Shown: positions 1,641-47,354 of the stretch, piece after piece
How the letters are laid out: every line of letters begins with the position of its first letter
Numbering within the stretch: the first letter of the stretch is position 1
Origin: an archaeon
Lineage (GTDB): Archaea > B1Sed10-29 > WALL01 > WAMD01
Assembly (NCBI GenBank): GCA_024275655.1
Contig: JAJRYR010000036.1
Span: 1 to 51,972 of the forward strand
DNA length: 51,972 nt
Direction: 5' to 3'
The notes under the pieces: generated by a model
Databases searched by the model: none
What the model was told of the DNA's origin: nothing
What the model saw: the letters and a program-made list of their open reading frames with translations, nothing else
Position numbers and translations under genes: made by a program

Positions 1641-1787
1641 TGGTCCTCCCACCTTCTCCATTTCTCCAGGGCCTCATTGTAATTTGTAAGGTTTCTTATT
1701 ATTACAAATTTACGTTACATTTGTCACGTGGAAGATTGGACATATGCCCAATAATATAAAAATAGTCGAGATTTCATAAATTAAACA

Positions 1788-2453
1788 ATGAGTATGAAAG
1801 AGGTTATATTTAGAATACGACATGATGTGGGATGCTGGAGTACACTTACAGAAAATGTTGACTTAGAGTTCAAGGAAACACAAGCACTGGGTAAAATACT
1901 ACCAAGCGGAAAGACGTTTACCTGGCAACAATATGTAGTGTACGATCCTAAAAACGAGTTAGAAGATTGGCTAAATAGGGTAAGGGGTAAAAAAGACTTG
2001 AAAACTATCAGAATAACACCTCTTTCTCAAAGACATAACACTTATCTAGTATACCTTGAGTGGGTTGGACCCACAGTATTTTCAAAGATTACTCAGTATG
2101 GGTTCCAGTTAGCGCCAATAACTGTGAAAGAAGGTTACGAGTTCTGGCATGTTGGGGTAGAGGATCCCAAAAAGTTAGCAGAAATTCTAGAAGACATACA
2201 AGAACTAGGTGAGGTCAAAGTAAAACGTATTGGACATGTAGAGCCTGAAATTTGCACAAATCTACTCACTCCAACACAAGAGAGGATACTAAAATTAGCA
2301 ATAGATCTTGGCTATTACTCCTGGCCCAGAAAAGTCACATTAGAAGAAATAGCTGCTGTGGTAGGTGTTAGTAGACGAGCTGTACAAGAAGCCTTGAGAC
2401 GAGCAGAGACAAAGATTATGAATAAATGGGTAAAAGAGGCTTTAACTAGATAA
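1788..2453 (+). CDS. HTH_10 (Bat-like) family DNA-binding protein
   Basis: The C-terminal segment LTPTQERILKLAIDLGYYSWPRKVTLEEIAAVVGVSRRAVQEALRRAETKIMNKW matches the HTH_10 / bacterio-opsin-activator-type HTH. Confidence 0.55.
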   Translation: MSMKEVIFRIRHDVGCWSTLTENVDLEFKETQALGKILPSGKTFTWQQYVVYDPKNELEDWLNRVRGKKDLKTIRITPLSQRHNTYLVYLEWVGPTVFSKITQYGFQLAPITVKEGYEFWHVGVEDPKKLAEILEDIQELGEVKVKRIGHVEPEICTNLLTPTQERILKLAIDLGYYSWPRKVTLEEIAAVVGVSRRAVQEALRRAETKIMNKWVKEALTR

Positions 2454-3246
2454 ACCCGGCCAGGCCCTTCTTCTCCAGCTCTTCTTTGAGGTTCAGTTTC
2501 ATGAAGTCTCTAGCTGCCAGGCTCCTCACCCCAGTTTTCTCTGCCAGGATTCCTGCCATCTTTTCCGGGCCAAACCTCAACGCCCTCATTCCAAAATGAG
2601 TCAGGATAGCCAGTTTGGGTTTTACTTTAGATACTATCTGTACAGCATCCCCCAAGGTCATTATCTCCCCAAAATGGGATAAGTCAGGTGAAATAGTATT
2701 CAAAATCAAGATGTCCACACCATTGAAGTAATCCTCCATTCCAGGGTAGTAGCAGGTGTCAGAAGTGTATCCTAGTTTCAAATCCTCAAAATCAAACACA
2801 AATCCTATTCCGGTGGGCTCACCGTGAACGGTGCTTGTGAAGGACACTTCAAAGTCCTCAAATTTCTCTTTTCTCCCCGGTTCCGCAACTATCACCCTCT
2901 CAACCAGGGATTTGTGGAAATTTGTTATTCCGGGGGTCTCGTCTTCCCAGCCTTGAATGAACATCCTGCTCCCAACAAGTACTCCCTTCTTCTCTCTAGT
3001 TCCCTCCGTCATGGCCTCTATAACTGCAGGTGCATCGTTGTAGTGATCAGTGTGCTGGTGAGAAACAAATACATACTTAGTTTTCATTGGGCTTTCTTTA
3101 GCTTTCCATGCATTAACCAAAGCTCCAGGACCTGGGTCGCAGTGAATCTGAAATCCATCTCCCTTTAATAGAAATCCCCCAGTCCTTCTCCTCTGGGTTG
3201 AAAGGACAAACCGCCCACCGCCAGTGCCTAGAAAGACCAGTTCCAT
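2446..3246 (-). CDS. Metallo-beta-lactamase-fold hydrolase
   Basis: HQHTDH matches the HxHxDH zinc motif, in an N-terminal MELVFLGTGGG context typical of the MBL/RNase Z-like fold. Confidence 0.65.
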   Translation of the reverse strand: MELVFLGTGGGRFVLSTQRRRTGGFLLKGDGFQIHCDPGPGALVNAWKAKESPMKTKYVFVSHQHTDHYNDAPAVIEAMTEGTREKKGVLVGSRMFIQGWEDETPGITNFHKSLVERVIVAEPGRKEKFEDFEVSFTSTVHGEPTGIGFVFDFEDLKLGYTSDTCYYPGMEDYFNGVDILILNTISPDLSHFGEIMTLGDAVQIVSKVKPKLAILTHFGMRALRFGPEKMAGILAEKTGVRSLAARDFMKLNLKEELEKKGLAGFI

Positions 3247-3285
3247 GAGAGAAATTAGGGTTAGAATAAATAAAAAGCTAAAAGT

Positions 3286-3936
3286 TTAGAGCAATCCTTT
3301 ATGCACCTTTCTCAGCAGCTCCTCAAAGCTCTTACTCTTCTTGTAAGTTTTGTATACCCGAGGTAGCTTTGTCTTCAAGAAATCATAACGCCACTGCTGC
3401 CAAACAGAGGGAATAGTGTAATAATGCTGGAAAATCTTGGCAATAACTTCGGAAAGCTGCCAAATTTCATTCCAATTAGGCAACTTCTTTAATTCATAGT
3501 AATCTATACCATAAATTTCCTTCATGATATCCCAGTAGTGGATATGGAAAAGCTCCTCTGCAATAATTCCCCTATCTCTATTTCCGATTCGGATTCCACT
3601 AGGGTATAAATAACAACCCCTCGTGCCGTACCACACTTGACAAGAATATCTCTTCCTCTGCCATTCAAAGCCCGTAAACTCACTTACCTTCTCAAAAAAT
3701 TCACTTTCAACTGGCCTCCAGTAATCCCTAACAATAACACAAAATTCCTTGTTCAATCTTTCGAAAGTTTTCAAGTGCTTCCTAACGAAATCAGCATCCC
3801 ATCCTCTAATGTCATCGTAATCTGGTCCAAGGCGTTCCCTAAGTTCCCTGGCTGTCATGGGGCGAAAATAGAGCCTTGGCATAATCTTTATTAGCCAACT
3901 GGTATTATTAAAACTTTGTACGGCTATTTTAGTCAA
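3286..3936 (-). CDS. Hypothetical protein (W/Y-rich, no recognised domain)
   Basis: It is a long ORF with coding-like composition. Its promoter region is the 51-bp direct repeat, copy A. Confidence 0.35.
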   Translation of the reverse strand: MTKIAVQSFNNTSWLIKIMPRLYFRPMTARELRERLGPDYDDIRGWDADFVRKHLKTFERLNKEFCVIVRDYWRPVESEFFEKVSEFTGFEWQRKRYSCQVWYGTRGCYLYPSGIRIGNRDRGIIAEELFHIHYWDIMKEIYGIDYYELKKLPNWNEIWQLSEVIAKIFQHYYTIPSVWQQWRYDFLKTKLPRVYKTYKKSKSFEELLRKVHKGLL

Positions 3937-3943
3937 TTTACGA

Positions 3944-3994
3944 GGTCGGAAATCCGACTAAATTTACAGAAAAATGGTCGGAAAACCGACCAAA
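3944..3994. repeat. 51-bp perfect direct repeat, copy A (left flank of ATPase cassette 1); it contains two hairpins, gtcggaaatccgac and ggtcggaaaaccgacc
   Basis: The 51-mer ggtcggaaatccgactaaatttacagaaaaatggtcggaaaaccgaccaaa recurs exactly at 5218-5268. Confidence 0.9.
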
Positions 3995-4028
3995 ATCTAT
4001 AAAAAGAATAAAAAAGATAAACCAATAC

Positions 4029-5213
4029 ATGAACCTAGAGGAAATGAAAAAAACAGCAATAAGGCTAGGGGAAAATGTAAAAAATCTCAAACATAGATAT
4101 GTATTTTTCAGTCTAGTGAATAGACTGTTCAAAGAACCCAGAATAAAGTTGGTGAGAGGTTTTAGAGGATCTGGAAAAACCACCATTCTACTACAAATTT
4201 TTAACAAGTACAGGAAAAGAGCTATGTATCTATCAGCGGATAGCCCTATGATTGCTGGAGAGACATTGTACAATGTTTTAAAAGAAGTAATATCCAGTGG
4301 ATACGACCTTCTCTTGATAGATGAAATACACAGATATCCGCACTGGAGGAGAGACATAAAGGCGATATATGATGAGTTCCCGGAGGTAACTCTAGTTTGC
4401 TCAGGAAGTGCGCCCCTAGCATTTGTACCTGAAAGGAGGGAGGAGGTAATAGATGTTGAGCCAATGGGGTTCAGAGAGTTCTTAGAACTCAAGCATGGGT
4501 TTTCCCTCATTGTGAGGGATGAATGGTTAGATCCAGAAAAAAGCATAGAGATGGTGGCGAGATACTCTCCAAACTTAGAATCTGAATTTAGGGAGTACCT
4601 CCAAGTAGGGGGGTACCCAACTTGTCTAAAGTATGATCTAGACAGTGCAAAAAAAGCTTTATACGCCTCAATAAGAAAGTCCATATATGAAGACACTGCA
4701 AGCATTTTAAAAATGTCTCAAGAAAAAATCTACGCATTAAACAAGATACTAGTATTTCTAGCCACATCAGAACCTGGAGAATTGAGTATCACCACACTAG
4801 CATCTGCCACAGAGCTTTCAAAATCGGTCATATATGAACTTCTAGATGCACTAGAAAAGATGAAGATAATAAGAATTATACGCCCGTACGGACGAGGGGC
4901 AAAACTTATTAGAGGATCTCCAAAAATGTTATTTTACCATCCCAATCTCAGATATGCCATATGTAACGAATTGTCAATTGAACCAAGCATAGGTGCCATT
5001 AGGGAGGAACTCGCAGTTTTCGCCCTTGTCTCCAGGGGATACACGGTGAATACATTAAAGGGGTTGAAGCGTTCCCCTGATTACTATGTGGGTAAACCAC
5101 TAAATATGGTCCTTGAAATTGGGGGTAAGGGAAAGTCCAAAAAACAAATAAAGGGTTACAAAAGAGCAAAGGTTATCAAACCTGATCAATTACTTCTTCT
5201 ATCACTTTTCTAG
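4029..5213 (+). CDS. AAA_14/DUF4143-type P-loop ATPase (paralog 1)
   Basis: Walker A GFRGSGKTT and Walker B LLLIDEIH, with family-typical length and C-terminal region. It is a paralog of the 7865-9106 and 10564-11814 genes. Confidence 0.7.
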   Translation: MNLEEMKKTAIRLGENVKNLKHRYVFFSLVNRLFKEPRIKLVRGFRGSGKTTILLQIFNKYRKRAMYLSADSPMIAGETLYNVLKEVISSGYDLLLIDEIHRYPHWRRDIKAIYDEFPEVTLVCSGSAPLAFVPERREEVIDVEPMGFREFLELKHGFSLIVRDEWLDPEKSIEMVARYSPNLESEFREYLQVGGYPTCLKYDLDSAKKALYASIRKSIYEDTASILKMSQEKIYALNKILVFLATSEPGELSITTLASATELSKSVIYELLDALEKMKIIRIIRPYGRGAKLIRGSPKMLFYHPNLRYAICNELSIEPSIGAIREELAVFALVSRGYTVNTLKGLKRSPDYYVGKPLNMVLEIGGKGKSKKQIKGYKRAKVIKPDQLLLLSLF

Positions 5214-5217
5214 ATTT

Positions 5218-5268
5218 GGTCGGAAATCCGACTAAATTTACAGAAAAATGGTCGGAAAACCGACCAAA
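5218..5268. repeat. 51-bp perfect direct repeat, copy B (right flank of ATPase cassette 1)
   Basis: It is identical to 3944-3994. It starts 4 bp after the ATPase stop and ends at the stop of the 5269-5919 gene. Confidence 0.9.
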
Positions 5269-5919
5269 TTACTCTTTTTTGTGTGCTTTTTCTTGCTTTT
5301 CATTTGTTTCCTGTTTACCTAGTCTTAACGCAATTACTGCCAGCACTGCAATTATCACCAGCCCAGCTATTGCAATCACCAGCACGGAATTGTCCTCAGT
5401 TCCTAGTTCCTGCTCTGGCTGTTCAGATGGTTGAGCAACTGGTAGGGTTGCATTAACCGTTTCCTGAGTTTGCTCTTCTTGGGGCTGGATCTCCTCTGTA
5501 CCAAATATCTTTGCCTCTAGATCTGCCAGAAGTGCATCCATGTCAAATGGTGGGTCTGCATGGCTGGTTAGCCAGTAGTACAACCACTCGTGGTACTGGT
5601 CTACCTTCTGCATTAAATCGTAATCCCCATAGTTCTGCAAGCAGGCCTTTGTGTGAGCCCCACCATAGTACTCTAAAGCTATCACTCTTCCGTTCCAATC
5701 TCCCTCGTTAAAGTTCCACTCCTTCTCTGCCTCCCTTGCTCCCTTCAAAAGGTAATACGTACATTTGTCCCAGACCTTGAACTGTTCATAACACAGACCA
5801 GCGTCAATGTACTTTCCCTGGGTGGCTAGAGAATTGCATTGCTCCAAGCTCTCGTAGGTAACGCCTAAAACCAGGGTTGAAACCAGGATTATGCCCAGCA
5901 AAGCATATACGCATTTCAT
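5269..5919 (-). CDS. Secreted/membrane-anchored hypothetical protein (N-terminal signal peptide, acidic Q/E-rich linker, C-terminal TM anchor)
   Basis: N-terminal MKCVYALLGIILVSTLVLGV and C-terminal VLVIAIAGLVIIAVLAVIAL followed by basic residues. Confidence 0.4.
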   Translation of the reverse strand: MKCVYALLGIILVSTLVLGVTYESLEQCNSLATQGKYIDAGLCYEQFKVWDKCTYYLLKGAREAEKEWNFNEGDWNGRVIALEYYGGAHTKACLQNYGDYDLMQKVDQYHEWLYYWLTSHADPPFDMDALLADLEAKIFGTEEIQPQEEQTQETVNATLPVAQPSEQPEQELGTEDNSVLVIAIAGLVIIAVLAVIALRLGKQETNEKQEKAHKKE

Positions 5920-6989
5920 AGATTAATTTTTGGGTTAAATCTTTTAAAAAACTCTCTCACAGCGTACACTGGATTCTCCGTGAAAATCAGGTCCAGGTCT
6001 GGTGGGAAGCACCTCTTGTAATTCTTCCACTTGTACCTTTCATCCATAAACACAACCACACCGACATCATCTTCATTCCTTATCAGCCTTCCCGCCGCTT
6101 GTATTGCCCTGGCCATTGCCGGGTACAGGTATCCGTAGGTCCAACCAGCCCCAAACTTGTACTCATAGTAATCTATTAGTGCTTTGGTTTCCAGGTCATA
6201 CTCGTTCAGAGGTATTCCGACCACAATCACTCCAACTAGTTCCCTTCCAGGATAGTCCACACCCTCTGCCAGGCTCCCTCCAGCTACTGCTAAGAGCAGG
6301 GCTCCTTCCTCCTTCATCCTCTTGAAAAGGGACAAGAGCTCGTTGGTTTCCTCTGGCTTAGAGGACTCCCTCTGAACCAGCACCTGCCTAGTGGTAGCGA
6401 TGTAAGATCTAATTCCGTGAAGAACATCATAGCTGGGAAAGAAAACCGCAACGTTTCCAGGGATTGCCTCCAGGATCTCTGAGATCTTTTCCCCAATCCT
6501 CTTAAATTCTTCCTCGTTCCTCTTTGAGTATCTGGTGGTGACTCCAGTGTAAACAACATTCAAGCGGTTTTTCTTGGGAAACGGAGACCTGTAAATCTTT
6601 GTTACGGTCCGCTCCGGATCGAAGCCCAGCAAGTCCCGGTACATCTCTAGAGGAACTAGTGTTCCGGACATGGCAATTACTGAGTGGGCAGAATCCATGA
6701 GATCCTGGGTGGCCAGGCTGGGATCCAAGTTCTTGTAAGAGATTGTTATCCCGGTGCCGGTCTTCCACTTCTTTGCTATTCTAATGTAGCTGGGAATTTC
6801 CTCTGACCACAGAGAGAAGAACTTTGCCAATTTCAAGCAGGCGGACTTGTTTCTGTTGGTGGTTTCCAGGTAAACTAGACCCTGGTCGTGGAACTCTCCA
6901 ATCAAATCCTCGTCCCAGCTCGGGAGGTCCGAACTGGAAACCAAAGTCTCTTTTTGGTTTGCCAGCTTCTTTGCCAGGACTTCTTCCAT
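5916..6989 (-). CDS. XPD/Rad3-family helicase, C-terminal part (Helicase_C_2); frameshifted continuation of 7007-7810
   Basis: SGTL motif and the HD2 region (VAVFFPSY...AAGRLIRNEDDVGVVVF). The open frame extends upstream to 7082 as HYSLTGEKAEKEV... and overlaps the N-terminal ORF in another frame. Confidence 0.65.
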   Translation of the reverse strand: MEEVLAKKLANQKETLVSSSDLPSWDEDLIGEFHDQGLVYLETTNRNKSACLKLAKFFSLWSEEIPSYIRIAKKWKTGTGITISYKNLDPSLATQDLMDSAHSVIAMSGTLVPLEMYRDLLGFDPERTVTKIYRSPFPKKNRLNVVYTGVTTRYSKRNEEEFKRIGEKISEILEAIPGNVAVFFPSYDVLHGIRSYIATTRQVLVQRESSKPEETNELLSLFKRMKEEGALLLAVAGGSLAEGVDYPGRELVGVIVVGIPLNEYDLETKALIDYYEYKFGAGWTYGYLYPAMARAIQAAGRLIRNEDDVGVVVFMDERYKWKNYKRCFPPDLDLIFTENPVYAVREFFKRFNPKINL

Positions 6990-7006
6990 AGCCTTGGAAA
7001 GTTTTC

Positions 7007-7810
7007 TCAGATGCTTTTCCAGGTGCTTCGCACCCAGGAGCTTAACTTCCTTCTCTGCCTTTTCACCAGTAAGTGAGTAATGCTAACACTGAGGTGGTTT
7101 CTAACCCTCTCTGGAACGTTGTGTGCCTCATCTATGATAATGACTGAATCTCTCAATGTCTTTTTTGTCTTTATCAGAAAGCTCTCTCTTATTCCAGAGG
7201 AGAGCAAATGGAAGTAGTCTGCTATTATCACCTGGGAGTCTCTAGCTATCTGTGTCATTATCTCATAGGCACAGAGTGGTCGTCTCTCCCCTTCGTATGT
7301 AAACGCTTTGCACATATCCACTAGCTTGTGGGCTGGTGTGACCATTCCATAATTCGCTAGGAGCTTTTCTAAATGAAGTCTTGCTGTCTTCCTCTGGCTG
7401 GGGGTGAATCCTCTCGCCCAAGCGTAGTACGGGCAGGATTCGTTTTTCCTTCTCTTGTTGCAAACCTCGTAGAACTCGTCCACGTCCATGCCTTCCAGCG
7501 AGGGATCAACACATGCATACCTTCTCCCGATTATGTCTGCTGCCCTGAACTTGACCTTGTGCCTTTTTGCGATTCTCTCCAGCTCGTTCACCGCAATTTG
7601 ATGCTGGGATATCTTGGGAGTCAAGAAAAAGACTGTCCCATCGTTTTCCAGGGCCCAGGTGAGGGAAGGTCCCAAGACGGCTGCGGTCTTTCCTATGCCA
7701 GTTGGCGCATGGGCAAGCAAATGCTTACCGCTAGACACGGCCTCCCAAACGTCCATCAAGAACTCTTCCTGGTACTTCCTAGGCCTAGAGTGAGAGAAAA
7801 GGATCTTCAC
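7007..7810 (-). CDS. XPD/Rad3-family helicase, N-terminal part (DEAD_2, Walker A, DEAH box)
   Basis: Walker A APTGIGKT and DEAH box IIIDEAHNV. The ORF ends about 25 codons after the DEAH box. Confidence 0.65.
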   Translation of the reverse strand: MKILFSHSRPRKYQEEFLMDVWEAVSSGKHLLAHAPTGIGKTAAVLGPSLTWALENDGTVFFLTPKISQHQIAVNELERIAKRHKVKFRAADIIGRRYACVDPSLEGMDVDEFYEVCNKRRKNESCPYYAWARGFTPSQRKTARLHLEKLLANYGMVTPAHKLVDMCKAFTYEGERRPLCAYEIMTQIARDSQVIIADYFHLLSSGIRESFLIKTKKTLRDSVIIIDEAHNVPERVRNHLSVSITHLLVKRQRRKLSSWVRSTWKSI

Positions 7811-7864
7811 ATTCTAGTTTTGGAAGAGGAACTATTTAGGGATTGAGGTCGCTGGGCAATTCAG

Positions 7865-9106
7865 TTATTTATATACCTTCGCATTTTTTAGAAGAAGGTT
7901 TATAAATGACTCAATGTCTTCTAGGGTTACTAAATGCTTATCCTTAACCCGTAGCTCATTAGAGGCAGCGTTCAACCCCTTGATCTCCCTAGCCAAGTGG
8001 GGGCCACGGCCAAGGGTTACCTGAACTGTGAAGGTTGGCTTGCCTTCCCTAGCTACAACAAAATCGCATTCGGCATCGTTTGTCCAGTAATAGATCTCAC
8101 TTCCCATCTTAAACAGTTCTATTCCAACCAGGAGTTCTAGAGCTCTGCCCCTATCTGGAGTTGGCCCCCAGCCCACTGCCCACTTGAAGGCTAGGTCAAT
8201 CGGATAAAACTTCCTAGGAAACGCCATCTGGGTTTTCAACGAATGTGCATAACGTCTAACCTCAAACATAACCATAGAATCCTTGAAAGCGTTCACGTAC
8301 TTTTCTGCGGTGTGGTAAGCCATCTTGAACAACTTGGATATCTTGTTCACGGAAATCGGGTTTCCCGCATTTCTCAGCAAATACCTGGCTATTTCATTTG
8401 CCTTGTCTAGATCTAAGTCATGACCAGCGGACACGTCCCTGGCAACTATGCTTTCATAGTACTCAACAGCGAGTTTTCTCTTCGCTGCTTCTGTTTTTTC
8501 CATGAATATCTCGGGGTAGCTACCATAACTCATGAGCTCTTCCATTAAACCTAGCAATGCTTGTCTGTCTCGAGGGTCCACAGGATTTATTCCCCTAATT
8601 CTAGCCGCCTCAAAGAGACTAAAGGGGTAAACTCTAAAGGTGATCGTCCTTCCAGCTAGTCTCCTAGAAAACTGGCTACCCAGCATAGCCAGCGTTGAGC
8701 CAGAAACAACCAGATTTACGGGGTCTCTCTTGTCGTATATTGCCCTAAGGTGCATATCCCACTTTGGCACATTCTGTATCTCATCCAGGAGGATAACTGC
8801 TCCTTTACCTCCTACTTTTTTCGCTTCCTCGTAGACTTTTTTGAAACCTGCTTCTTGTATTTCCGGATCCTCAAAATTAATGTAAACCGCCCTTCTCGGA
8901 TTACTCTGTATCAATTCACTTGCAACCTGGTACATTACTGTTGTTTTCCCTGCTCTCCTAGGACCTATTATCACCTTTATCTTTCTTTTCCCCATCCAAT
9001 CCAGAATTTTCCTGGTAACATCTCTAGGCTCTCCCAGTAGATCGCTAGGAACCTCTCCAACTGTCCACCACGGATTCCATGTCTCTAGAACATCCCTAAG
9101 CGCCAT
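7865..9106 (-). CDS. AAA_14/DUF4143-type P-loop ATPase (paralog 2)
   Basis: Walker A GPRRAGKTT and Walker B ILLDEIQ. The last 11 codons and the stop lie in the 34-bp repeat. Confidence 0.7.
   Translation of the reverse strand: MALRDVLETWNPWWTVGEVPSDLLGEPRDVTRKILDWMGKRKIKVIIGPRRAGKTTVMYQVASELIQSNPRRAVYINFEDPEIQEAGFKKVYEEAKKVGGKGAVILLDEIQNVPKWDMHLRAIYDKRDPVNLVVSGSTLAMLGSQFSRRLAGRTITFRVYPFSLFEAARIRGINPVDPRDRQALLGLMEELMSYGSYPEIFMEKTEAAKRKLAVEYYESIVARDVSAGHDLDLDKANEIARYLLRNAGNPISVNKISKLFKMAYHTAEKYVNAFKDSMVMFEVRRYAHSLKTQMAFPRKFYPIDLAFKWAVGWGPTPDRGRALELLVGIELFKMGSEIYYWTNDAECDFVVAREGKPTFTVQVTLGRGPHLAREIKGLNAASNELRVKDKHLVTLEDIESFINLLLKNAKVYK
7867..7900. repeat. 34-bp perfect direct repeat, copy A (atttatataccttcgcattttttagaagaaggtt), at the 3' end of ATPase paralog 2
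   Basis: It is identical to 9127-9160. Confidence 0.9.
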
Positions 9107-9126
9107 GTTCTATTATTAGTTTTGTC

Positions 9127-9160
9127 ATTTATATACCTTCGCATTTTTTAGAAGAAGGTT
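9127..9160. repeat. 34-bp perfect direct repeat, copy B, between the ATPase paralog 2 start and the stop of the Nre-like gene
   Basis: It is identical to 7867-7900. Read on the minus strand it again encodes ...NLLLKNAKVYK*. Confidence 0.9.
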
Positions 9161-10365
9161 CACATCCACCGTCTCAATGCCTCTCTGGATCTAATCCTAG
9201 CCAACAACTCACTACTCTTTCTCCACTCTCTCTTCACTTCAAGTCTTCTGTCTATCTCGTTCAAAGCTGCCTCCAAAGAATCAAATTTAACCGGCTTTGA
9301 GGCCATGGCCCTCCTAACGTTCTCCCTTATCTGCCAAACACCAACAGGAGCCCAGTACTCTGGGGTTATTTCCCTCACCACCAGGGCTTTTGCTTGCCTC
9401 TTTATTTTGGCTAGATACTCTAGAATTGCCAGCCTGGCTGCGTAGTATGCACCAGTAACATTGTCTGCATAACTGGTCCTTCCCTCGTAGGGCTCGTAGT
9501 CCGCTAGGATTACTGGTCGTTCTCCGCCAGTGACCCATATACAGCCAGGGTCATAGATTTCCACGTTGTCAAATTCCCACTTACCTGGGATCAGTAAGAC
9601 CTCAAACCTGTTGCCCAAATAGTAGCTCTCAAAGAGCAAGTAATCGCCGATCTCCTGAAAGTCCTTTACCCTAGCGATTAATGCCTTTCCCAGGGTATCA
9701 TCTGTCGCAGTGATGCTCCACCTAGTAGGAACTAGTTTTTTATCAATTCCCAAAGTTCCTATGGAAAGCAAGTTCGTGAGTTTGCTAACTGGTACGCCGT
9801 GCTGGTACAAGTAGAACAGAGCTTCTCCCGCCTTCATTTCGTCGTTCACAACTTCATCCACCTTTCTGGGTATCTTCGGGTTGTCCACAAGTTCCAGGCC
9901 CAAAATCTCTCCACTGGGCCCATGGGGAGCAGTGATGTCGTTCCAGGATACTTCGGTCTTAGGCTCTTTCTTGAACGCCAGCTCCATTTCCACGCTATCC
10001 CTTGCCATCACGGCCAATTGCATTTCATACAGGTGCCTGGGTGGATCCTTTGCCCAGTCTATGCGCATTTCCTCTTTTCCCCTTATTAGTTGAGACCTCA
10101 TCTGCAGTATCTCCTCTAGGGACTTTCCATACCAGGCCTCGGGAAGATCTAAAAAACTAGCATCTTCTGTTCTTGCAACCAATGGACCAACAAAAACTTT
10201 TGGATACCCTATCCTCCCAACAAGAACGCTTGGGGGGGAATTGGCATCTATGATCCTGGAGATGCTTTTCAAACTAGCCAAAACCCTAGCTCTCTCTAGC
10301 AGAGGGCATTTAGGCCTCCCACACAAAAGCTTGGTTCCTTTGCACTTAACACAAAGTTCTGGCAC
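9160..10365 (-). CDS. Nre-family (NreA-like) predicted DNA-repair protein with an N-terminal C4 zinc ribbon
   Basis: N-terminus MPELCVKCKGTKLLCGRPKCPLL and ~400 aa length. The assignment is from memory of the Nre_N/Nre_C architecture. Confidence 0.45.
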   Translation of the reverse strand: MPELCVKCKGTKLLCGRPKCPLLERARVLASLKSISRIIDANSPPSVLVGRIGYPKVFVGPLVARTEDASFLDLPEAWYGKSLEEILQMRSQLIRGKEEMRIDWAKDPPRHLYEMQLAVMARDSVEMELAFKKEPKTEVSWNDITAPHGPSGEILGLELVDNPKIPRKVDEVVNDEMKAGEALFYLYQHGVPVSKLTNLLSIGTLGIDKKLVPTRWSITATDDTLGKALIARVKDFQEIGDYLLFESYYLGNRFEVLLIPGKWEFDNVEIYDPGCIWVTGGERPVILADYEPYEGRTSYADNVTGAYYAARLAILEYLAKIKRQAKALVVREITPEYWAPVGVWQIRENVRRAMASKPVKFDSLEAALNEIDRRLEVKREWRKSSELLARIRSREALRRWM

Positions 10366-10388
10366 ACTAGGTTTTTGTTTAACAAGAA

Positions 10389-10446
10389 TTAAATACCTAG
10401 TCTTGCCAAAAATTATTGATGAAAATTGTTAAAACTAGGCACGGCC
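10389..10446. repeat. 58-bp perfect direct repeat, copy A; it carries a truncated copy of the start of the AbrB-like gene (MKIVKTRHG then divergence and a stop)
   Basis: It is identical to 11879-11936. Confidence 0.9.
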
Positions 10447-10518
10447 CAGTTCTTCTGTTGCCTAGGAAAACGGTCAGATATGTCTAAATAAATCCTGGAG
10501 GAAGGTTTTCTGTAAACA

Positions 10519-10546
10519 GAAAGAAATTCAAGGAATTCTTTCTGCT
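10519..10546. repeat. 28-bp imperfect palindrome (gaaagaaattcaaggaattctttctgct), copy A, 17 bp upstream of ATPase paralog 3
   Basis: It is identical to 11825-11852. Internal inverted symmetry runs around the central aa. Confidence 0.85.
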
Positions 10547-10563
10547 AGGAGAAAGAATTAAAT

Positions 10564-11814
10564 ATGGGAAAAACACTAAAATATATCATGGATTTGAAGA
10601 GTACACTAAAGGAGATAATCCTGGAATTTCACGAGAGAGGAATCCCAGAATACATCCACAGAGATATCCCCGTACCTAAACTGAAGAGGATAAATAAAGC
10701 TATAAGTATAGTTGGTCCTAGGAGATCCGGAAAGACATATCTGATGTATCAAATAATGAAGGAAAGAATAAGCGATATTGAAAAGATAGTTTATGTTAAC
10801 CTAGAGGATGACAGGCTCATAGACATAAATGCTAAAAACCTGCGCCAGATACTTGAAGCCTATACAGAGTTGTACCCTGAAAAGACACCTATTGTATTTC
10901 TAGATGAGGTTCAGGTTGTTCTAGGATGGGAAAAATTCGTTAGAAGGCTCGTAGATTCTGGGATAAGGGTGTATATTTCCGGGTCAAGTTCAAAGTTGAT
11001 TGGCAAGGAACTTGCAACAACCCTACGTGGAAGGGCAATAACGGTTAATGTTTACCCGTTGTCATTCAAAGAGTTTCTTAGGTTCAAAGGTGTGAAATTG
11101 GATAAAAACTGGGAGTACACGTCCCAAAGAGTGAAGGTAAAGAGAATGTTTGATCAGTTCATGAAAACTAGCGGGTTCCCAGAGATTGCACTTGAAGGAG
11201 AGATGTCACTGATAGATGACTACTTCAAAACAATATTCTTTAGGGATGTAGTAGAGAGGTATAGAATAAAGAACCTAGATCTCATGGAATTGTTGATGAA
11301 ATACTTGGTAAAAAACTATGCCAGGGAATTTAGCATAAATAGATTCCACAACTTTGCTAGGAGTCTGGGCTACAAATCCAGCACGTCTGTTGTTAGAGAG
11401 TATCTTAGGATGCTCCAAGAATCATATTTTGTACACCTGGCTCCAGTCTGGAGAAAGAGCAAAAAGGAATTTGTTTATTCCAAGAAAAGCTACGTTATCG
11501 ATCACGGCTTTGTTAACTACCTACTCCCAGAAGTGGATCCGGGAAGATTACTAGAAAATATAGTATTTGAGGAACTGGTAAAAAAAGGGGAAACAGTTAG
11601 GTACTACAAAAATGACGGGGAATGCGACTTCATAACAGGTAATCTGGCAATACAGGTGACTTACCGACTAGGAGAGGAAAATAGACAAAGAGAGATAAGG
11701 GGTCTCATGTTGGCAAAGAGCCACACGAGAAGAAGAGGGATAATATTAACGTATGATCAGGAAGAGAGCAATCCAGAAACTGTTCCAGCATACAAGTTTA
11801 TGCTTAGATCATAG
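10564..11814 (+). CDS. AAA_14/DUF4143-type P-loop ATPase (paralog 3)
   Basis: Walker A GPRRSGKTY and Walker B VFLDEVQ. It is closest to paralog 2. Confidence 0.7.
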   Translation: MGKTLKYIMDLKSTLKEIILEFHERGIPEYIHRDIPVPKLKRINKAISIVGPRRSGKTYLMYQIMKERISDIEKIVYVNLEDDRLIDINAKNLRQILEAYTELYPEKTPIVFLDEVQVVLGWEKFVRRLVDSGIRVYISGSSSKLIGKELATTLRGRAITVNVYPLSFKEFLRFKGVKLDKNWEYTSQRVKVKRMFDQFMKTSGFPEIALEGEMSLIDDYFKTIFFRDVVERYRIKNLDLMELLMKYLVKNYAREFSINRFHNFARSLGYKSSTSVVREYLRMLQESYFVHLAPVWRKSKKEFVYSKKSYVIDHGFVNYLLPEVDPGRLLENIVFEELVKKGETVRYYKNDGECDFITGNLAIQVTYRLGEENRQREIRGLMLAKSHTRRRGIILTYDQEESNPETVPAYKFMLRS

Positions 11815-11824
11815 TTTTCATATG

Positions 11825-11852
11825 GAAAGAAATTCAAGGAATTCTTTCTGCT
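11825..11852. repeat. 28-bp palindrome, copy B, 10 bp downstream of ATPase paralog 3
   Basis: It is identical to 10519-10546. Confidence 0.85.
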
Positions 11853-11878
11853 GCAAGATACTTGTGAGTATACAAAGC

Positions 11879-11936
11879 TTAAATACCTAGTCTTGCCAAA
11901 AATTATTGATGAAAATTGTTAAAACTAGGCACGGCC
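11879..11936. repeat. 58-bp perfect direct repeat, copy B; it contains the promoter and the first 10 codons of the 11906-12667 gene
   Basis: It is identical to 10389-10446. Confidence 0.9.
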
Positions 11937-12667
11937 TAGCTGTGGTTCTTCCCAGAGAGATCGTGGAACTGCTAGGGTTAAAGGAAGGGCAGGAGCTGGA
12001 ATTCAAGCACATTTCCGGCAAGGTTTTTGCTCTATTCCCAAAGGAAGCTGGCAAGAAACCATCAGAAAAGAAGGGGAAGGGGCTTACCGAAGAAGAGCTC
12101 AAGGTTCTCAAGAAGTTGAACAAGATTAGGTTCACGGAAAGGACTCCAAAGAAAGTTAAAGACGTGTTAACAAAAGAGGAGTGGGAAGTTCTGAAAGAAC
12201 TACTGAAAAAGAGAGTCATACTGAAGATGGTTCACGGAAAGTACGAAAAGAGCGGGGGAGTCTACTCCATAAGCAGGGAATATTACGGAATGTTAAAAGG
12301 CGTTGAAAAGAAAAAGGAAAAGGACGAAGTGGATGCCCTGGTGGACGTTCTAAAGAGAGACGGCTTCTTCTCAACAAAGGACCAAAAGATAGCAGAAGAA
12401 CTGGCAGAGAGACTAAATACTGAACTGGAACTTGGAGAGGTAGCGGCTGTGAAAAGCTTTGACAAGACATTCTACTTCGTTACAAACCAAACATTAGCAT
12501 CTGTGGGAGACCAGATCAGAAAAGTTCTGAAATCCGGTCCATTGACAGCTGAGGAGATAGCCACCAAACTAAAAAAGGATCCCACGCTAGTGAAGGCCGT
12601 GCTGGAGATACTTAGAGAGTCTGGGGAAGTGATAGAAAAAAGAAAAAATGTGTATTCCCTTGCGTGA
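11906..12667 (+). CDS. DNA-binding protein with an N-terminal AbrB/SpoVT (MazE-like) swapped-hairpin domain and a C-terminal winged helix
   Basis: KIVKTRHGLAVVLPREIVELLGLKEGQELEF resembles the AbrB/MazE fold. C-terminal LTAEEIATKLKKDPTLVKAVLEILRESGEVIEKR is wH-like. Confidence 0.45.
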   Translation: MMKIVKTRHGLAVVLPREIVELLGLKEGQELEFKHISGKVFALFPKEAGKKPSEKKGKGLTEEELKVLKKLNKIRFTERTPKKVKDVLTKEEWEVLKELLKKRVILKMVHGKYEKSGGVYSISREYYGMLKGVEKKKEKDEVDALVDVLKRDGFFSTKDQKIAEELAERLNTELELGEVAAVKSFDKTFYFVTNQTLASVGDQIRKVLKSGPLTAEEIATKLKKDPTLVKAVLEILRESGEVIEKRKNVYSLA

Positions 12668-23614: not shown

Positions 23615-25315
23615 TCACCCCAATCTAATTTTGCCCTTCTTCCTTTTTAATACTACAAAGTACGCAACCACCGCAATAATAACAATGAACAAGAATCCAA
23701 CAAATAACAGCAACCCCACGGCAACTAGCAACCAGAACGTTGGGATATTGGATATGTCCAGGGAGAATGATGGCCCGCTACCTTTAATCCCCAGGTAGTA
23801 AGTGCCATTCTTGTTAAAAACTTTCAGATAGTTTGTCCCAGGAACTAGTGTTATGCTTCCAGATTTTGGAACGTAGTCCGGTTCGCATGCGTTCTCATTG
23901 CAGATTTCCACTTTAACGGGATATCCCTTTGCATTCAGATAAGCTTGTATGTACTCTGCTTTCAGAGTTACTTCAGAATCAGAGGTATACTCGATTATCT
24001 CAGAACTGCCATTCTCTACCTTTTTGGAAGCAACTTCATCCAGCAGTCCCGCACCAGGACCAATATCCTTGATTAAGTGGCAGTTGACACACATGTAACC
24101 TGGTTCTACAGATGCGTTATCATCGCACTCTTCTGACCCTGCAACTATTCCATCACCACATATGGGTTGCATGGACTTACAATCGCTAGAACACTTGAAC
24201 CCCAAAGGAACGTTGTTGCCATCACACAGCTCTCCTTCTACAACCATCCCATCGCCACATATAGGGACTAAGGATTTACAATCACTGGAACATTCATACC
24301 CTGGTTTCACACTTGAACCGTCGCAGACCTCACCATCAACTACTTTCCCATCGCCACACACCGGTTCTAGCTTGCAGTCCTCGGTGCACTTGAATCCATA
24401 TGGTACACCATCATTCCCATCACATTCCTCATTTTGCCCTAGCATATTTGGGGTCTGCTTGATGCCATCCCCACAGTATGCTGGAGCTGGTAGGTACTTG
24501 CCATCTTCAACATCGTACACGTGATCCAACGGAAGCGAGTAGGATACTGTCTCATTTGCATCATATATCTTGATGTCAGATATTTTCCATAAGTATTCCC
24601 TGTTGTTCTCTATGTCCGCACCCATTATAACCAGGGTCAGATTGTCCCTCATACACTCTCCCGCATCTATTTTCATAACAACTGTGTGCCACTTCTCCTG
24701 CTCTATTGGCTCGGAATCGTACTTGTTCACAGCCCCGGCGTCGCCAAGTGCCTTCCCGTCAAACAGCCAACCCTTGTACGTTGTTTCAGACATGCAGTAA
24801 ATGTACTTGTCCAATGGGCCTATGTAGTTACATTCCACGTGAATGTGGCACATCTCACCATTCAACGGGAACCAGGAAAATGAATCTGGATTAAACCCTG
24901 GGTTCTCCAAGCTGGTGCCATTGTTTCCAAAGTACAAGAAGGAGAAAATGTTCGGCCCATCGTTTGCGGGTTCCTCTCCTGCTGCATTCCCTGCATTCCC
25001 CAAATCAAGATCAATGTTTGGAGCATAGACCCAAACCTTGAAGGATATGTAAAACTCGTCCGCAGGTGGGTGTGGGATAACCTTCCATATCCTCCAAATG
25101 CCCGTGAACTCGTCAGAGGTTTTCACTTCTAGGTATAAGCCTTGGTCAGGATCATATTTAAGCTGCCTATCAACATAGCCATCTCCATTGGCGAAGTGGA
25201 CTGTCTTGAATTGCCAGTCAGTACCCAAGTACTGGGAGTAGTTCAACCCATAAGCCAACACACCTAAGAACAACAGCGAGAGTATAGCATATCCCCTGAC
25301 ACTCATTTTTATCAC
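23615..25315 (-). CDS. Surface protein with a signal peptide, 4-5 tandem myxococcus-type cysteine-rich repeats (DUF4215-like CGDGxxxxxExCDxG) and a C-terminal TM anchor
   Basis: Repeats CGDGKVVDGEVCDGSS..., CGDGMVVEGELCDGNN... and CGDGIVAGSEECDDNA... lie at ~24070-24500. C-terminal hydrophobic helix plus KRKKGKIRLG. Confidence 0.6.
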   Translation of the reverse strand: MIKMSVRGYAILSLLFLGVLAYGLNYSQYLGTDWQFKTVHFANGDGYVDRQLKYDPDQGLYLEVKTSDEFTGIWRIWKVIPHPPADEFYISFKVWVYAPNIDLDLGNAGNAAGEEPANDGPNIFSFLYFGNNGTSLENPGFNPDSFSWFPLNGEMCHIHVECNYIGPLDKYIYCMSETTYKGWLFDGKALGDAGAVNKYDSEPIEQEKWHTVVMKIDAGECMRDNLTLVIMGADIENNREYLWKISDIKIYDANETVSYSLPLDHVYDVEDGKYLPAPAYCGDGIKQTPNMLGQNEECDGNDGVPYGFKCTEDCKLEPVCGDGKVVDGEVCDGSSVKPGYECSSDCKSLVPICGDGMVVEGELCDGNNVPLGFKCSSDCKSMQPICGDGIVAGSEECDDNASVEPGYMCVNCHLIKDIGPGAGLLDEVASKKVENGSSEIIEYTSDSEVTLKAEYIQAYLNAKGYPVKVEICNENACEPDYVPKSGSITLVPGTNYLKVFNKNGTYYLGIKGSGPSFSLDISNIPTFWLLVAVGLLLFVGFLFIVIIAVVAYFVVLKRKKGKIRLG

Positions 25316-46830: not shown

Positions 46831-46866
46831 ATTTATTTTTGTCATAACTGGTTAAAAAGGTTTTAT
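46831..46866. promoter_or_regulatory. tRNA-Cys promoter (BRE/TATA ctttttaa ~27 nt upstream of the tRNA 5' end on the minus strand); it is copy 1 of a ~36-bp direct repeat
   Basis: atttatttttgtcataactggttaaaaaggtttta lies immediately 5' of tRNA-Cys. It is nearly identical to 47317-47354. Confidence 0.6.
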
Positions 46867-46869
46867 AGC

Positions 46870-47139
46870 TCACTTATAAACATTTTTTCTCTTGCCTATT
46901 TTTACAATGATGATTATTTCTTTACTAGGGTATACTCGGAACAAGATTCTGTACTTCCCAACCCTCAAGCGATAGGTGTGTTGCCAACCTTCCATTTTGA
47001 TTACATCCAGATTAATAAAAGGAAATTCCCGTAATTGATTGATCTTCTCCAAAATTCGTGATCTAGTTCTCGGAGGAATACTCTTCAACTCAGAATGTGC
47101 TCGAGGTAAAAAGCGAATCTCAAATACCATATAGCTCAA
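46870..47139 (-). CDS. relE: RelE/ParE-family type II toxin (TTG start as called; internal ATG at 47130)
   Basis: ...WQHTYRLRVGKYRILFRVYPSKEIIIIVKIGKRKNVY is the RelE/ParE C-terminal signature. Confidence 0.75.
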   Translation of the reverse strand: MSYMVFEIRFLPRAHSELKSIPPRTRSRILEKINQLREFPFINLDVIKMEGWQHTYRLRVGKYRILFRVYPSKEIIIIVKIGKRKNVYK

Positions 47140-47140
47140 C

Positions 47141-47315
47141 TCATGAGCTCATCAAGAGAAACTAGCTTCTTTAGTTTCCCCATTCTAACTAGCTCATCTG
47201 CCTCCATCAACCTTTCGACTTCATCAAGTGTCAAGAATCTATCCTCAACCAGCTCAAATAGTTTATCCAATTTCATCTCAATTTGAGTTAACTTTTTTTC
47301 TACATCCACTACCAT
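47141..47315 (-). CDS. Putative cognate antitoxin (58 aa; not in the ORF track)
   Basis: Minus-strand MVVDVEKKLTQIEMKLDKLFELVEDRFLTLDEVERLMEADELVRMGKLKKLVSLDELMS*. Its TGA stop abuts the toxin start in the classic antitoxin-toxin order. Confidence 0.45.
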
Positions 47316-47316
47316 G

Positions 47317-47354
47317 ATTTTATTTTTGTCATAACTGGTTAAAAAGGTTTTTAT
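47317..47354. promoter_or_regulatory. Copy 2 of the tRNA-Cys promoter repeat, 1-2 bp upstream of the antitoxin ATG (predicting a leaderless TA transcript)
   Basis: attttatttttgtcataactggttaaaaaggttttta differs from copy 1 by only two 1-nt indels. Confidence 0.6.

Follow-up and report, generated by a model that had tools for sequence, protein, structure and literature searches.

We analyzed a complete 52-kb contig from an archaeal metagenome-assembled genome (JAJRYR010000036.1 of assembly GCA_024275655.1; 51,972 nucleotides (nt), hereafter the window), in which a gene for a predicted AAA_14/DUF4143 ATPase lies within two nested pairs of direct repeats at positions 10389 to 11936, adjoining an AbrB/MazE-like gene. 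The window was assigned to an archaeon based on its archaeal housekeeping genes (GatE, archaeal AdoMet synthetase, LonB, Nre and an Elp3-like gene), on TATA-like motifs found about 30 nt 5′ of many start codons, and on the names of the relatives of the window ATPases (Micrarchaeota, Nanoarchaeota, Diapherotrites). Going by the labels of ATPase and Nre relatives, it would be a DPANN-like archaeon. An initial annotation, made from the sequence of the window alone, had labeled the ATPase unit cassette 3. The label is apt, since two further ATPase units, cassettes 1 and 2, bear 51-nt and 37-nt repeats of their own.

For comparison, we fetched 80 metagenome loci encoding family members 31–41% identical to the ATPase of cassette 3 (ATPase 3). 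Among the loci discussed below, L016 is on contig JBMYCC010000037.1 and is a close relative of the window, L017–L020 and L022–L023 represent two more distant lineages with the ATPase at the site between the Nre and AbrB-like genes (the Nre/AbrB site), and L021 and L113 both originate from metagenome ERZ23495180. Scanning a genome collection with Nre returned, among the matches listed, only relatives 37–42% identical, too distant for synteny, and exact look-ups of the window proteins matched no record. The features at the cassette 3 locus are the following:

10389–10446, + strand: left copy of the outer direct repeat, host-derived, 58/58 identical to 11879–11936
10419–10487, + strand: truncated 5′ remnant of the AbrB-like gene, 22 codons and a stop, translation MKIVKTRHGPVLLLPRKTVRYV*
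10506–10557, + strand: left copy of the cassette terminal repeat, two dyads, conserved in L017, L022, L024 and L113
10558–10564, + strand: the cassette's own TATA box (TTAAATA), 30 nt 5′ of ATG 10588
10588–11814, + strand: AAA_14 + DUF4143 ATPase of cassette 3, a PADLOC PDC-S01 candidate defence gene (listed open reading frame (ORF) 10564–11814)
11815–11852, + strand: right copy of the cassette terminal repeat, partly decayed, with the 28-mer 11825–11852 intact and the first and last half-sites gone
11853–11878, + strand: spacer joining cassette and right outer repeat; the final 13 nt match sequence 5′ of the AbrB TATA box in L017
11879–11936, + strand: right copy of the outer direct repeat, supplying the AbrB-like gene with its working promoter and 5′ end
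11909–12667, + strand: host AbrB/MazE-like gene, 252 amino acids (aa), Pfam PF04014

The outer repeats are perfect over 58 nt, as initially described, and the similarity stretches to 68 nt at 94% identity. Each copy contains a TATA box (TTAAATA) and the first nine codons of the AbrB-like gene; the TATA-like element had been recognized correctly, while the ten codons proposed reduce to nine. Similarly, the upstream ORF that had been described as sharing ten codons and stopping after 19 matches the AbrB-like gene across nine identical codons and is 22 codons long. The 58-mer is present as a single copy in the cassette-less relative L016, and the AbrB-like gene is syntenic in all relatives, with orthologues in L016, L017, L021 and L022. 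The outer layer is duplicated host DNA. Because the host TATA box and nine codons stand on both sides, the AbrB-like gene has lost neither its promoter nor its 5′ end to the insertion. The TTAAATA at −30 of ATG 11909 indicates that this gene is leaderless. The initial proposal of an insertion into the AbrB leader with a 58-bp duplication is accordingly right about the duplication of host DNA and wrong about the leader, since none is present.

The 58-mer shows no hairpin (fold z = 0). The 13 nt just 5′ of the right 58-mer match (p = 0.008) what precedes the AbrB TATA box in L017. We do not claim that the 58-nt duplication runs on into the AbrB coding region: local nucleotide alignments were not significant (p = 0.17–0.7), though the remnant peptide looks AbrB-like.

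Inside the outer layer lies a perfect 28-nt repeat (10519–10546 and 11825–11852), located, as annotated for ORF 10564–11814, 17 nt before the listed ORF start and 10 nt after the stop. It has exactly two matches in the window at up to three mismatches and none in 100 shuffles. The 28-mer had been called a palindrome. The repeat itself is perfect, but the hairpin is imperfect and taken alone is unexceptional (z = −1.8), and the 28-mer forms the middle of a ~50-nt element (10506–10557) predicted to fold as a two-tier hairpin in single-stranded DNA (z = −3.4 to −3.7). This terminal repeat consists of two dyads of the form CTTTCT-N6-AGAAAG, which in the left copy read TTTTCT-N6-AGAAAG (10506–10523) and CTTTCT-N6-AGAAAG (10538–10555), the second with 8–9-nt inverted arms and a 6-nt spacer. 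The left copy leads directly into the cassette's own TATA box and the right copy starts immediately 3′ of the ATPase stop codon.

Homology between the window and orthologous loci spans exactly 10506–11852 (corresponding to L017 3028–4381 and L024 197–1552), and the homologous unit begins and finishes within the ~50-nt repeat. L024–L026 carry the ATPase unit (78% identical) in flanks unlike the Nre/AbrB locus. At L113, an ATPase 57% identical to ATPase 3 has different neighbors and a 54-nt repeat pair (91% identity) with the same dyads. Because the terminal repeat brackets orthologous ATPases (57–81% identity) in three unrelated genomic contexts, we conclude that it belongs to the cassette. The inner repeat represents the cassette's own ends and the nested architecture is real; the hairpin-bounded ATPase unit of the initial annotation is a discrete module, with unrelated flanks in L024 and L113. 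Aligned with one another, nine copies of the repeat have almost invariant half-sites (TTTCT, AGAAAGA, TCTTTCT and AGAAAGA) and free spacers. The palindromes, for which terminator or recombination hairpins had been suggested, are conserved dyad sites rather than generic terminators. Metagenome ERZ23495180 yields both an empty Nre/AbrB site (L021) and a cassette-3-type ATPase with intact terminal repeats elsewhere (L113).

ATPase 3 is the only gene between the repeats and the single ORF of the cassette. Its true start is probably ATG 10588, because the orthologues are 407 aa long and begin with MDLK and because TTAAATA lies at −30, a TATA-to-ATG spacing matched in L017, L022 and L024. The gene is thus most likely leaderless as well. 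The protein matches AAA_14 and DUF4143 in Pfam (1e-37 and 5e-16). All three window ATPases exceed the gathering score for AAA_14 (129.5, 112.4 and 76.6 bits; cut-off 27). For DUF4143, ATPase 3 (59.3 bits) and ATPase 2 (48.3 bits) exceed the cut-off of 28.1, with ATPase 1 falling under it at 23.4 bits. The PADLOC models for PDC-S01 match all three (E = 4.5e-96 for ATPase 3, 9.6e-84 and 5.7e-30). Previous studies have classed DUF4143 within the PD-(D/E)XK superfamily (PMC3424549) and have described the family, an ATPase fused to a PD-(D/E)XK domain, as a candidate single-gene defence that ranks fourth among prokaryote defences and is enriched in archaea (PMC12988326). PDC-S01 was defined from genes embedded inside other defence systems (bioRxiv 10.1101/2024.01.29.577857).

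Within the clade of the cassette 3 ATPase, Asp347 is invariant (E-C-D-F) and the next motif is I-Q-V-[T/C/S], in which Q and V are nearly invariant and no lysine is found. The structure model of ATPase 3 (predicted local distance difference test, pLDDT, 90.7) is STAND-like and archaeal-AAA+-like, and its nearest folds are STAND immune NTPases, not recombinases. The predicted layout comprises a nucleotide-binding domain, a lid, a winged helix and a nuclease-like domain, an arrangement that, as modeled, would suit an immune sensor-effector better than a recombinase. A sequence search of solved structures returned only P-loop matches to RecA, an NCBIfam search gave nothing useful, a scan for promoters and terminators of bacterial type was uninformative for archaeal DNA, and Rfam contained no credible family for positions 3800–12100. 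No near-identical further copies of the ATPases were found, the best relatives being 81% and 74% identical. The GC content of cassettes 1 and 3 (3800–5200 and 10200–12000) is 0.37–0.40 compared to 0.46–0.49 for the flanking host genes, and that of cassette 2 is slightly lower than the host genes, at 0.44–0.45.

We then compared the locus with its relatives. The AbrB-like protein of L016 is 99% identical to that of the window, and the gene order there is XPD, Nre, AbrB-like, with a gap of 53 nt between Nre and the AbrB-like gene and no ATPase. L016 aligns to the window in three blocks of 86–95% identity, and at both block junctions one stretch of L016 aligns to both window repeat copies (the 58-mer of cassette 3 and the 37-mer of cassette 2). 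L016 is therefore without both ATPases and has one copy of each repeat. The more distant relative L021 is likewise empty at the Nre/AbrB site. Absence of the ATPase upstream of the orthologous AbrB-like gene, which the proposed insertion called for, is thus seen in two of the five related lineages (L016 and L021). Two findings named beforehand as speaking against an insertion, synteny of both 58-bp copies and the ATPase in all relatives and a palindrome that is a generic terminator present throughout the genome, were not what we observed: the ATPase is not syntenic in all relatives and the palindrome is nowhere else in the window.

In L017–L020 and in L022–L023, an orthologous ATPase 81% and 79% identical to that of the window lies between Nre and the AbrB-like gene. 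In the same comparisons, host genes are 72–73% (Nre), 70–71% (TtuA) and 83–86% (AdoMetDC) identical. The divergence of the ATPase tracks that of the host genes, suggesting that the cassette is old at the Nre/AbrB locus and vertically inherited, contrary to the recent gain implied by the initial annotation. Given this vertical-like pattern, L016 most likely lost cassette 3 in a precise deletion, via recombination of the two 58-mers, rather than the window having gained it recently, and the match between the 13 nt 5′ of the right 58-mer and the AbrB upstream region of L017 supports a deletion. A recent re-integration in the window lineage would explain the perfect 58-mers. In the L017 lineage, the ATPase cassette and the AbrB-like gene are separated by an additional gene (L017 4388–5255) that encodes 274 aa, matches nothing in Pfam and has a copy of the promoter consensus ACAA[GA]G[AC]TTAAATACCTAG on either side.

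Bracketing by repeats extends to other units in the window:

3944–5268, + strand: cassette 1, a 51-nt perfect repeat (3944–3994 and 5218–5268) around ATPase 4029–5213
7864–9160, − strand: cassette 2, a 37-nt repeat (7864–7900 and 9124–9160; 36/37 identical) around ATPase 7865–9106
46832–47351, − strand: ParE toxin-antitoxin unit with a 33-nt perfect repeat (46832–46864 and 47319–47351)
395–416 and 1517–1538: 22-nt GC-rich hairpin repeat AGGGGGCCCTTAGCGGGCCCCA of a winged helix-turn-helix (AsnC-type) gene encoding 333 aa

The ATPase of cassette 1 is the third window member of the family and is very divergent. Its 51-mer is nearly the whole host intergenic region; in it lie a TATA-like element ~30 nt before the gene start at 3936 and, for the gene that ends at 5269, a hairpin resembling a terminator. 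Because the 51-mer carries both signals, each neighbor of cassette 1 retains its own. We also considered terminal inverted repeats as a general cassette feature and rejected them, the only match being 5 nt at the ends of cassette 1.

In cassette 2, the 37-mer takes in the final 11 codons of the ATPase gene itself with their stop, along with a TATA-like box. The orthologues of this ATPase (47–74% identity) all end in NLL[TL]KNAKV[FY]K or a near variant, and the 3′ end of the gene is repeated 3–31 nt 5′ of the ATG in five lineages with five different sets of neighbors. Within each genome the two copies are 96–100% identical, with lineage-specific variants present in both. Since the copies are alike within genomes and different between genomes, the repeat is cassette-derived and evolves in concert. 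The lone copy of this repeat in L016 encodes NLLLKNAKVYK*. A solo repeat encoding the C-terminus of the ATPase is a footprint left by a loss and cannot have been naive target DNA. For the cassette 2 locus of L107, we found no orthologous empty site in the window, synteny reaching only the neighboring genes.

The 33-mer surrounds a ParE toxin (46870–47139) and a 59-aa antitoxin (47136–47315) located between a Na+/H+ exchanger gene and tRNA-Cys. Its TATA-like box is correctly spaced for the antitoxin start on one side and for the tRNA on the other, and the 33-mer forms no hairpin (z = +1.1). At the winged helix-turn-helix gene, the motif GCTCCCTCTCCCCC comes after both 22-nt copies, separated from the right copy by a ~72-nt GC-rich, hairpin-rich insert (1539–1610). 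In relatives, a DUF2283/DUF4258 pair is bracketed alike. L110 contains two different AAA_14/DUF4143 cassettes adjoining each other (1642–4260), each with its own 55–56-nt repeat pair; the first repeat holds the start codon and first eight codons and the second the last 13 codons. The duplications measure 33–58 nt in the window and up to 170 nt at other loci. A Pfam scan of 37 window ORFs, including most of those of at least 100 aa, turned up no integrase or transposase domain.

To quantify how common such bracketing is, we searched for exact direct repeats within 350 nt of both gene ends at the metagenome loci. A repeat of at least 21 nt is found in 12/71 loci; of 724 shifted control placements, 10 have one of at least 20 nt. 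In a same-strand comparison across all fetched loci, using other genes of at least 200 codons as controls, flanking repeats scoring 40 bits or more accompany 29/86 ATPase genes compared to 4/322 control genes (Fisher p = 7e-18). Restricting this comparison to metagenome loci gives 18/74 ATPase genes and 2/129 controls (p = 3e-7). The enrichment is ~30-fold relative to neighboring genes. Most flanking repeats are 30–170 nt long, and they often correspond to an intrinsic-terminator hairpin or to the 5′ end of a neighboring gene; at L096, 131 nt are repeated that seem to be the 5′ end of a glycosyltransferase gene, an identity inferred from the encoded motif. Repeat bracketing is strongly enriched around PDC-S01-type ATPase genes and concerns about a third of the sampled members.

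Taken together, we propose that the ATPase gene is an integrase-free, repeat-bracketed accessory cassette that is lost and probably regained by repeat-by-repeat recombination, an account that leaves the first insertion outside its scope and to which we assign a probability of roughly 55%. Recombination between repeat copies, by looping-out or by unequal crossing-over between genome copies, would delete the cassette precisely, and the reverse reaction at the leftover single copy would restore it. Such cycles of loss and regain would make the presence of the gene switchable and would homogenize the repeat copies. The dyads probably serve as binding sites for the winged helix of the cassette's own STAND-like ATPase. 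This putative role is suggested by the occurrence of a palindrome per ATPase lineage, by the operator-like conservation of the half-sites, and by the overlap of the left copy with the promoter. The left terminal repeat would then be a putative operator, and the right terminal repeat a putative insulator, terminator or pairing site.

Several observations weigh against this account. The segments that separate outer from inner repeats, 59 nt long on the left and 26 nt on the right, fit no explanation, and reading the left segment as a decayed duplication is not significant (p ≥ 0.17). The outer repeats in L017 and L022 are only 11–18 nt long and consist of promoter consensus. A perfect 58-mer at a seemingly old site needs gene conversion or recent re-integration. 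The repeats made of the gene's own 3′ end, found at five loci for cassette 2, are unexplained by simple recombination at a pre-existing site, and the model accounts neither for the first entry into a new site nor for the making of long duplications. Finally, the figure of 34% of bracketed ATPase genes pools mechanisms: at L030 (1–5678, three ATPases) and L080 (2600–6340, an ATPase and other genes), the genes are parted by one shared 60–140-nt repeat in an array-like manner, and at L066 the ATPase is flanked by internal repeats that a host gene already had.

Alternatively, the cassette may be self-mobilizing, with the ATPase, winged-helix and PD-(D/E)XK-like protein recognizing its own dyads and catalyzing excision and insertion via wide staggered cuts of the target and of a circular donor, the fill-in of which would create long variable repeats. 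PDC-S01 genes would then be autonomous integrase-free mobile cassettes, each driven by an ATPase bound to lineage-specific dyads. We regard this as improbable, although of the alternatives it survives best. Each lineage does have a palindrome of its own (CTTTCT-N6-AGAAAG; GGTCGG-N3/4-CCGAC; ACCTTC-N13-GAAGGT; GTTCA-N6-TGAAC), DUF4143 has been assigned to the PD-(D/E)XK superfamily (PMC3424549), IS1634/IS1549 set a precedent for target duplications of 8–514 bp (PMC2266710), and the family is noted for sitting "embedded" within other operons. However, the ParE toxin-antitoxin, the DUF2283/DUF4258 pair and the winged helix-turn-helix gene are bracketed alike without an ATPase. Spread in identical multiple copies is not seen, consistent terminal inverted repeats are absent, and the segments from outer to inner repeats are ill-suited to precise end cleavage. 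Further points against it are the nuclease motif, which in this clade is D...Q-V-[TC] without the lysine, and the closest folds, which are STAND immune NTPases rather than recombinases. If true, self-mobilization would define a new class of single-gene mobile element and explain the frequent embedding inside operons.

Next in standing, and unlikely, is the possibility that the repeats are purely regulatory (operator, insulator, terminator or promoter copies) and maintained by gene conversion, with no part in mobility, in which case L016 would have undergone an ordinary deletion and the 58-mer would have been duplicated locally by chance. Such a role would agree with the left repeats adjoining or containing TATA boxes and the right repeats following stop codons, with half-sites conserved in the manner of protein-binding sites, and with the apparently vertical inheritance of the ATPase. 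It is difficult to reconcile with the two independent precise losses in L016, both coinciding exactly with a repeat pair, and with the presence of the same cassette types in unrelated contexts. Duplication of the host-derived 58-mer or 51-mer has no obvious regulatory purpose beyond being a consequence of insertion, and the ~30-fold enrichment over neighboring genes is likewise at odds with regulation alone.

A host or trans-acting site-specific recombinase, XerA-like or an integron-type tyrosine recombinase, might instead act on the dyad and hairpin repeats as known for attC and pdif/IMEX. Both the terminal repeat and the cassette 1 51-mer fold as two-tier hairpins (6-bp stem, 3–5-nt internal loop, 8–9-bp stem) reminiscent of attC, and the second dyad, with its 8–9-nt arms and 6-nt spacer, has the geometry of a recombinase core site. 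The variety of the bracketed cargo genes and the arrays with a single shared repeat at L030 and L080 are also consistent with such an enzyme. Nevertheless, the repeat sequence differs for each window cassette, so that one recombinase cannot recognize all of them, and hairpins are absent from the 58-mer (z ~0) and from the 33-mer of the toxin-antitoxin unit (z = +1.1). An integrase domain was not found in the scanned window ORFs, and GTTRRRY/RYYYAAC boxes were not seen by eye in the repeats inspected. Identity extends over 25–58 nt, not over a short crossover core. Action of a recombinase in trans therefore ranks third among the alternatives and seems doubtful. The last of them, an assembly artefact from mixed strains, is suggested by the metagenomic assembly of the window and its relatives and can be set aside as extremely improbable because independent assemblies agree (the NCBI metagenome-assembled genomes L017, L018, L022 and L107 with the Logan raw-run assemblies L019, L020, L023 and L108), the repeat lengths of 25, 27, 33, 37, 51, 56 and 58 nt are not k-mer sizes, and several repeat pairs contain mismatches.

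Comparison with known systems situates the repeat-bracketed accessory cassette that we favor. All three window ATPases strongly match PDC-S01/AAA_14 (PF13173) + DUF4143 (PF13635)/COG1373 "predicted AAA+ ATPase", within which the cassette 3 clade is without the canonical E-x-K. Like att-flanked islets and elements, the cassettes have direct repeats of tens of nt around accessory DNA, with one copy at the empty site, and the end of a host gene, which thereby stays intact, can form part of the repeat. Unlike them, they have no integrase in the cassette or in the scanned window ORFs, their cargo is a single gene of 0.5–1.5 kb, each cassette has its own repeat, and some repeats are the 3′ end of the cargo gene. 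IMEX/pdif modules share one dif-like 28-nt site on either side of every module, whereas the five bracketed units of the window have five unrelated repeats.

Integron cassettes resemble the present units in being single-gene units with imperfect palindromes forming hairpins at the boundary, a two-tier fold, and defence and toxin-antitoxin cargo. In contrast to integron cassettes, the units described here lack R′/R″ core boxes, are dispersed, have the same repeat on both sides and have outer repeats derived from the host; neither IntI in the scanned window ORFs nor an attI platform was found, and only the two-tier hairpin geometry resembles attC. Insertion sequences in general have a transposase, terminal inverted repeats, a short target duplication of fixed length and several identical copies; here no transposase domain was found in the scanned window ORFs, and the repeats of 33–58 nt are variable in length with closest relatives at 81% and 74% identity. 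IS1634/IS1549 (IS4-related) share the long variable direct repeats at insertion, 8–514 bp (PMC2266710), but have a DDE transposase, inverted terminal repeats and multiple copies, none of which is found here; they are the sole precedent we found for long duplications of variable length upon insertion. Compared to the STAND NTPases and archaeal AAA+ proteins SSO1545 and PABY2304 (PDB 2fna, 2qen), the protein is short, has no sensor repeats and has a C-terminal restriction-endonuclease-like domain. The system does not have the defining properties of insertion sequences, integron cassettes, integrase-borne elements or Xer-exploiting modules.

The searchable literature does not mention flanking direct repeats, cassette boundaries or excision of PDC-S01/DUF4143 genes, and contains no account of lineage-specific terminal dyad repeats or single-repeat footprints for them. 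While the gene family and excisable repeat-flanked islands are already known, repeat-bracketed single-gene PDC-S01 cassettes thus appear to be undescribed there. In bacteria and archaea alike, few candidate immune genes are as abundant as PDC-S01. The dyads offer candidate protein-binding sites, and the repeats predict circular or tandem intermediates and an on/off presence of the gene. Long duplications that spare the promoters of the neighbors suggest an integrase-free route of insertion, and the description of these genes as embedded in defence loci may owe as much to insertion behavior as to defence function.

Two further observations concern other genes of the window. The XPD-type helicase gene (5916–7810, − strand) is frameshifted at ~7025–7073, splitting it into ORFs 7007–7810 and 5916–6989. 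The gene is intact in L016 (631 aa), and the window version is a pseudogene or an assembly error. Finally, positions 24120–24369 contain three tandem 99-nt coding repeats within the gene of a 566-aa DUF4215 protein (23615–25315, − strand).

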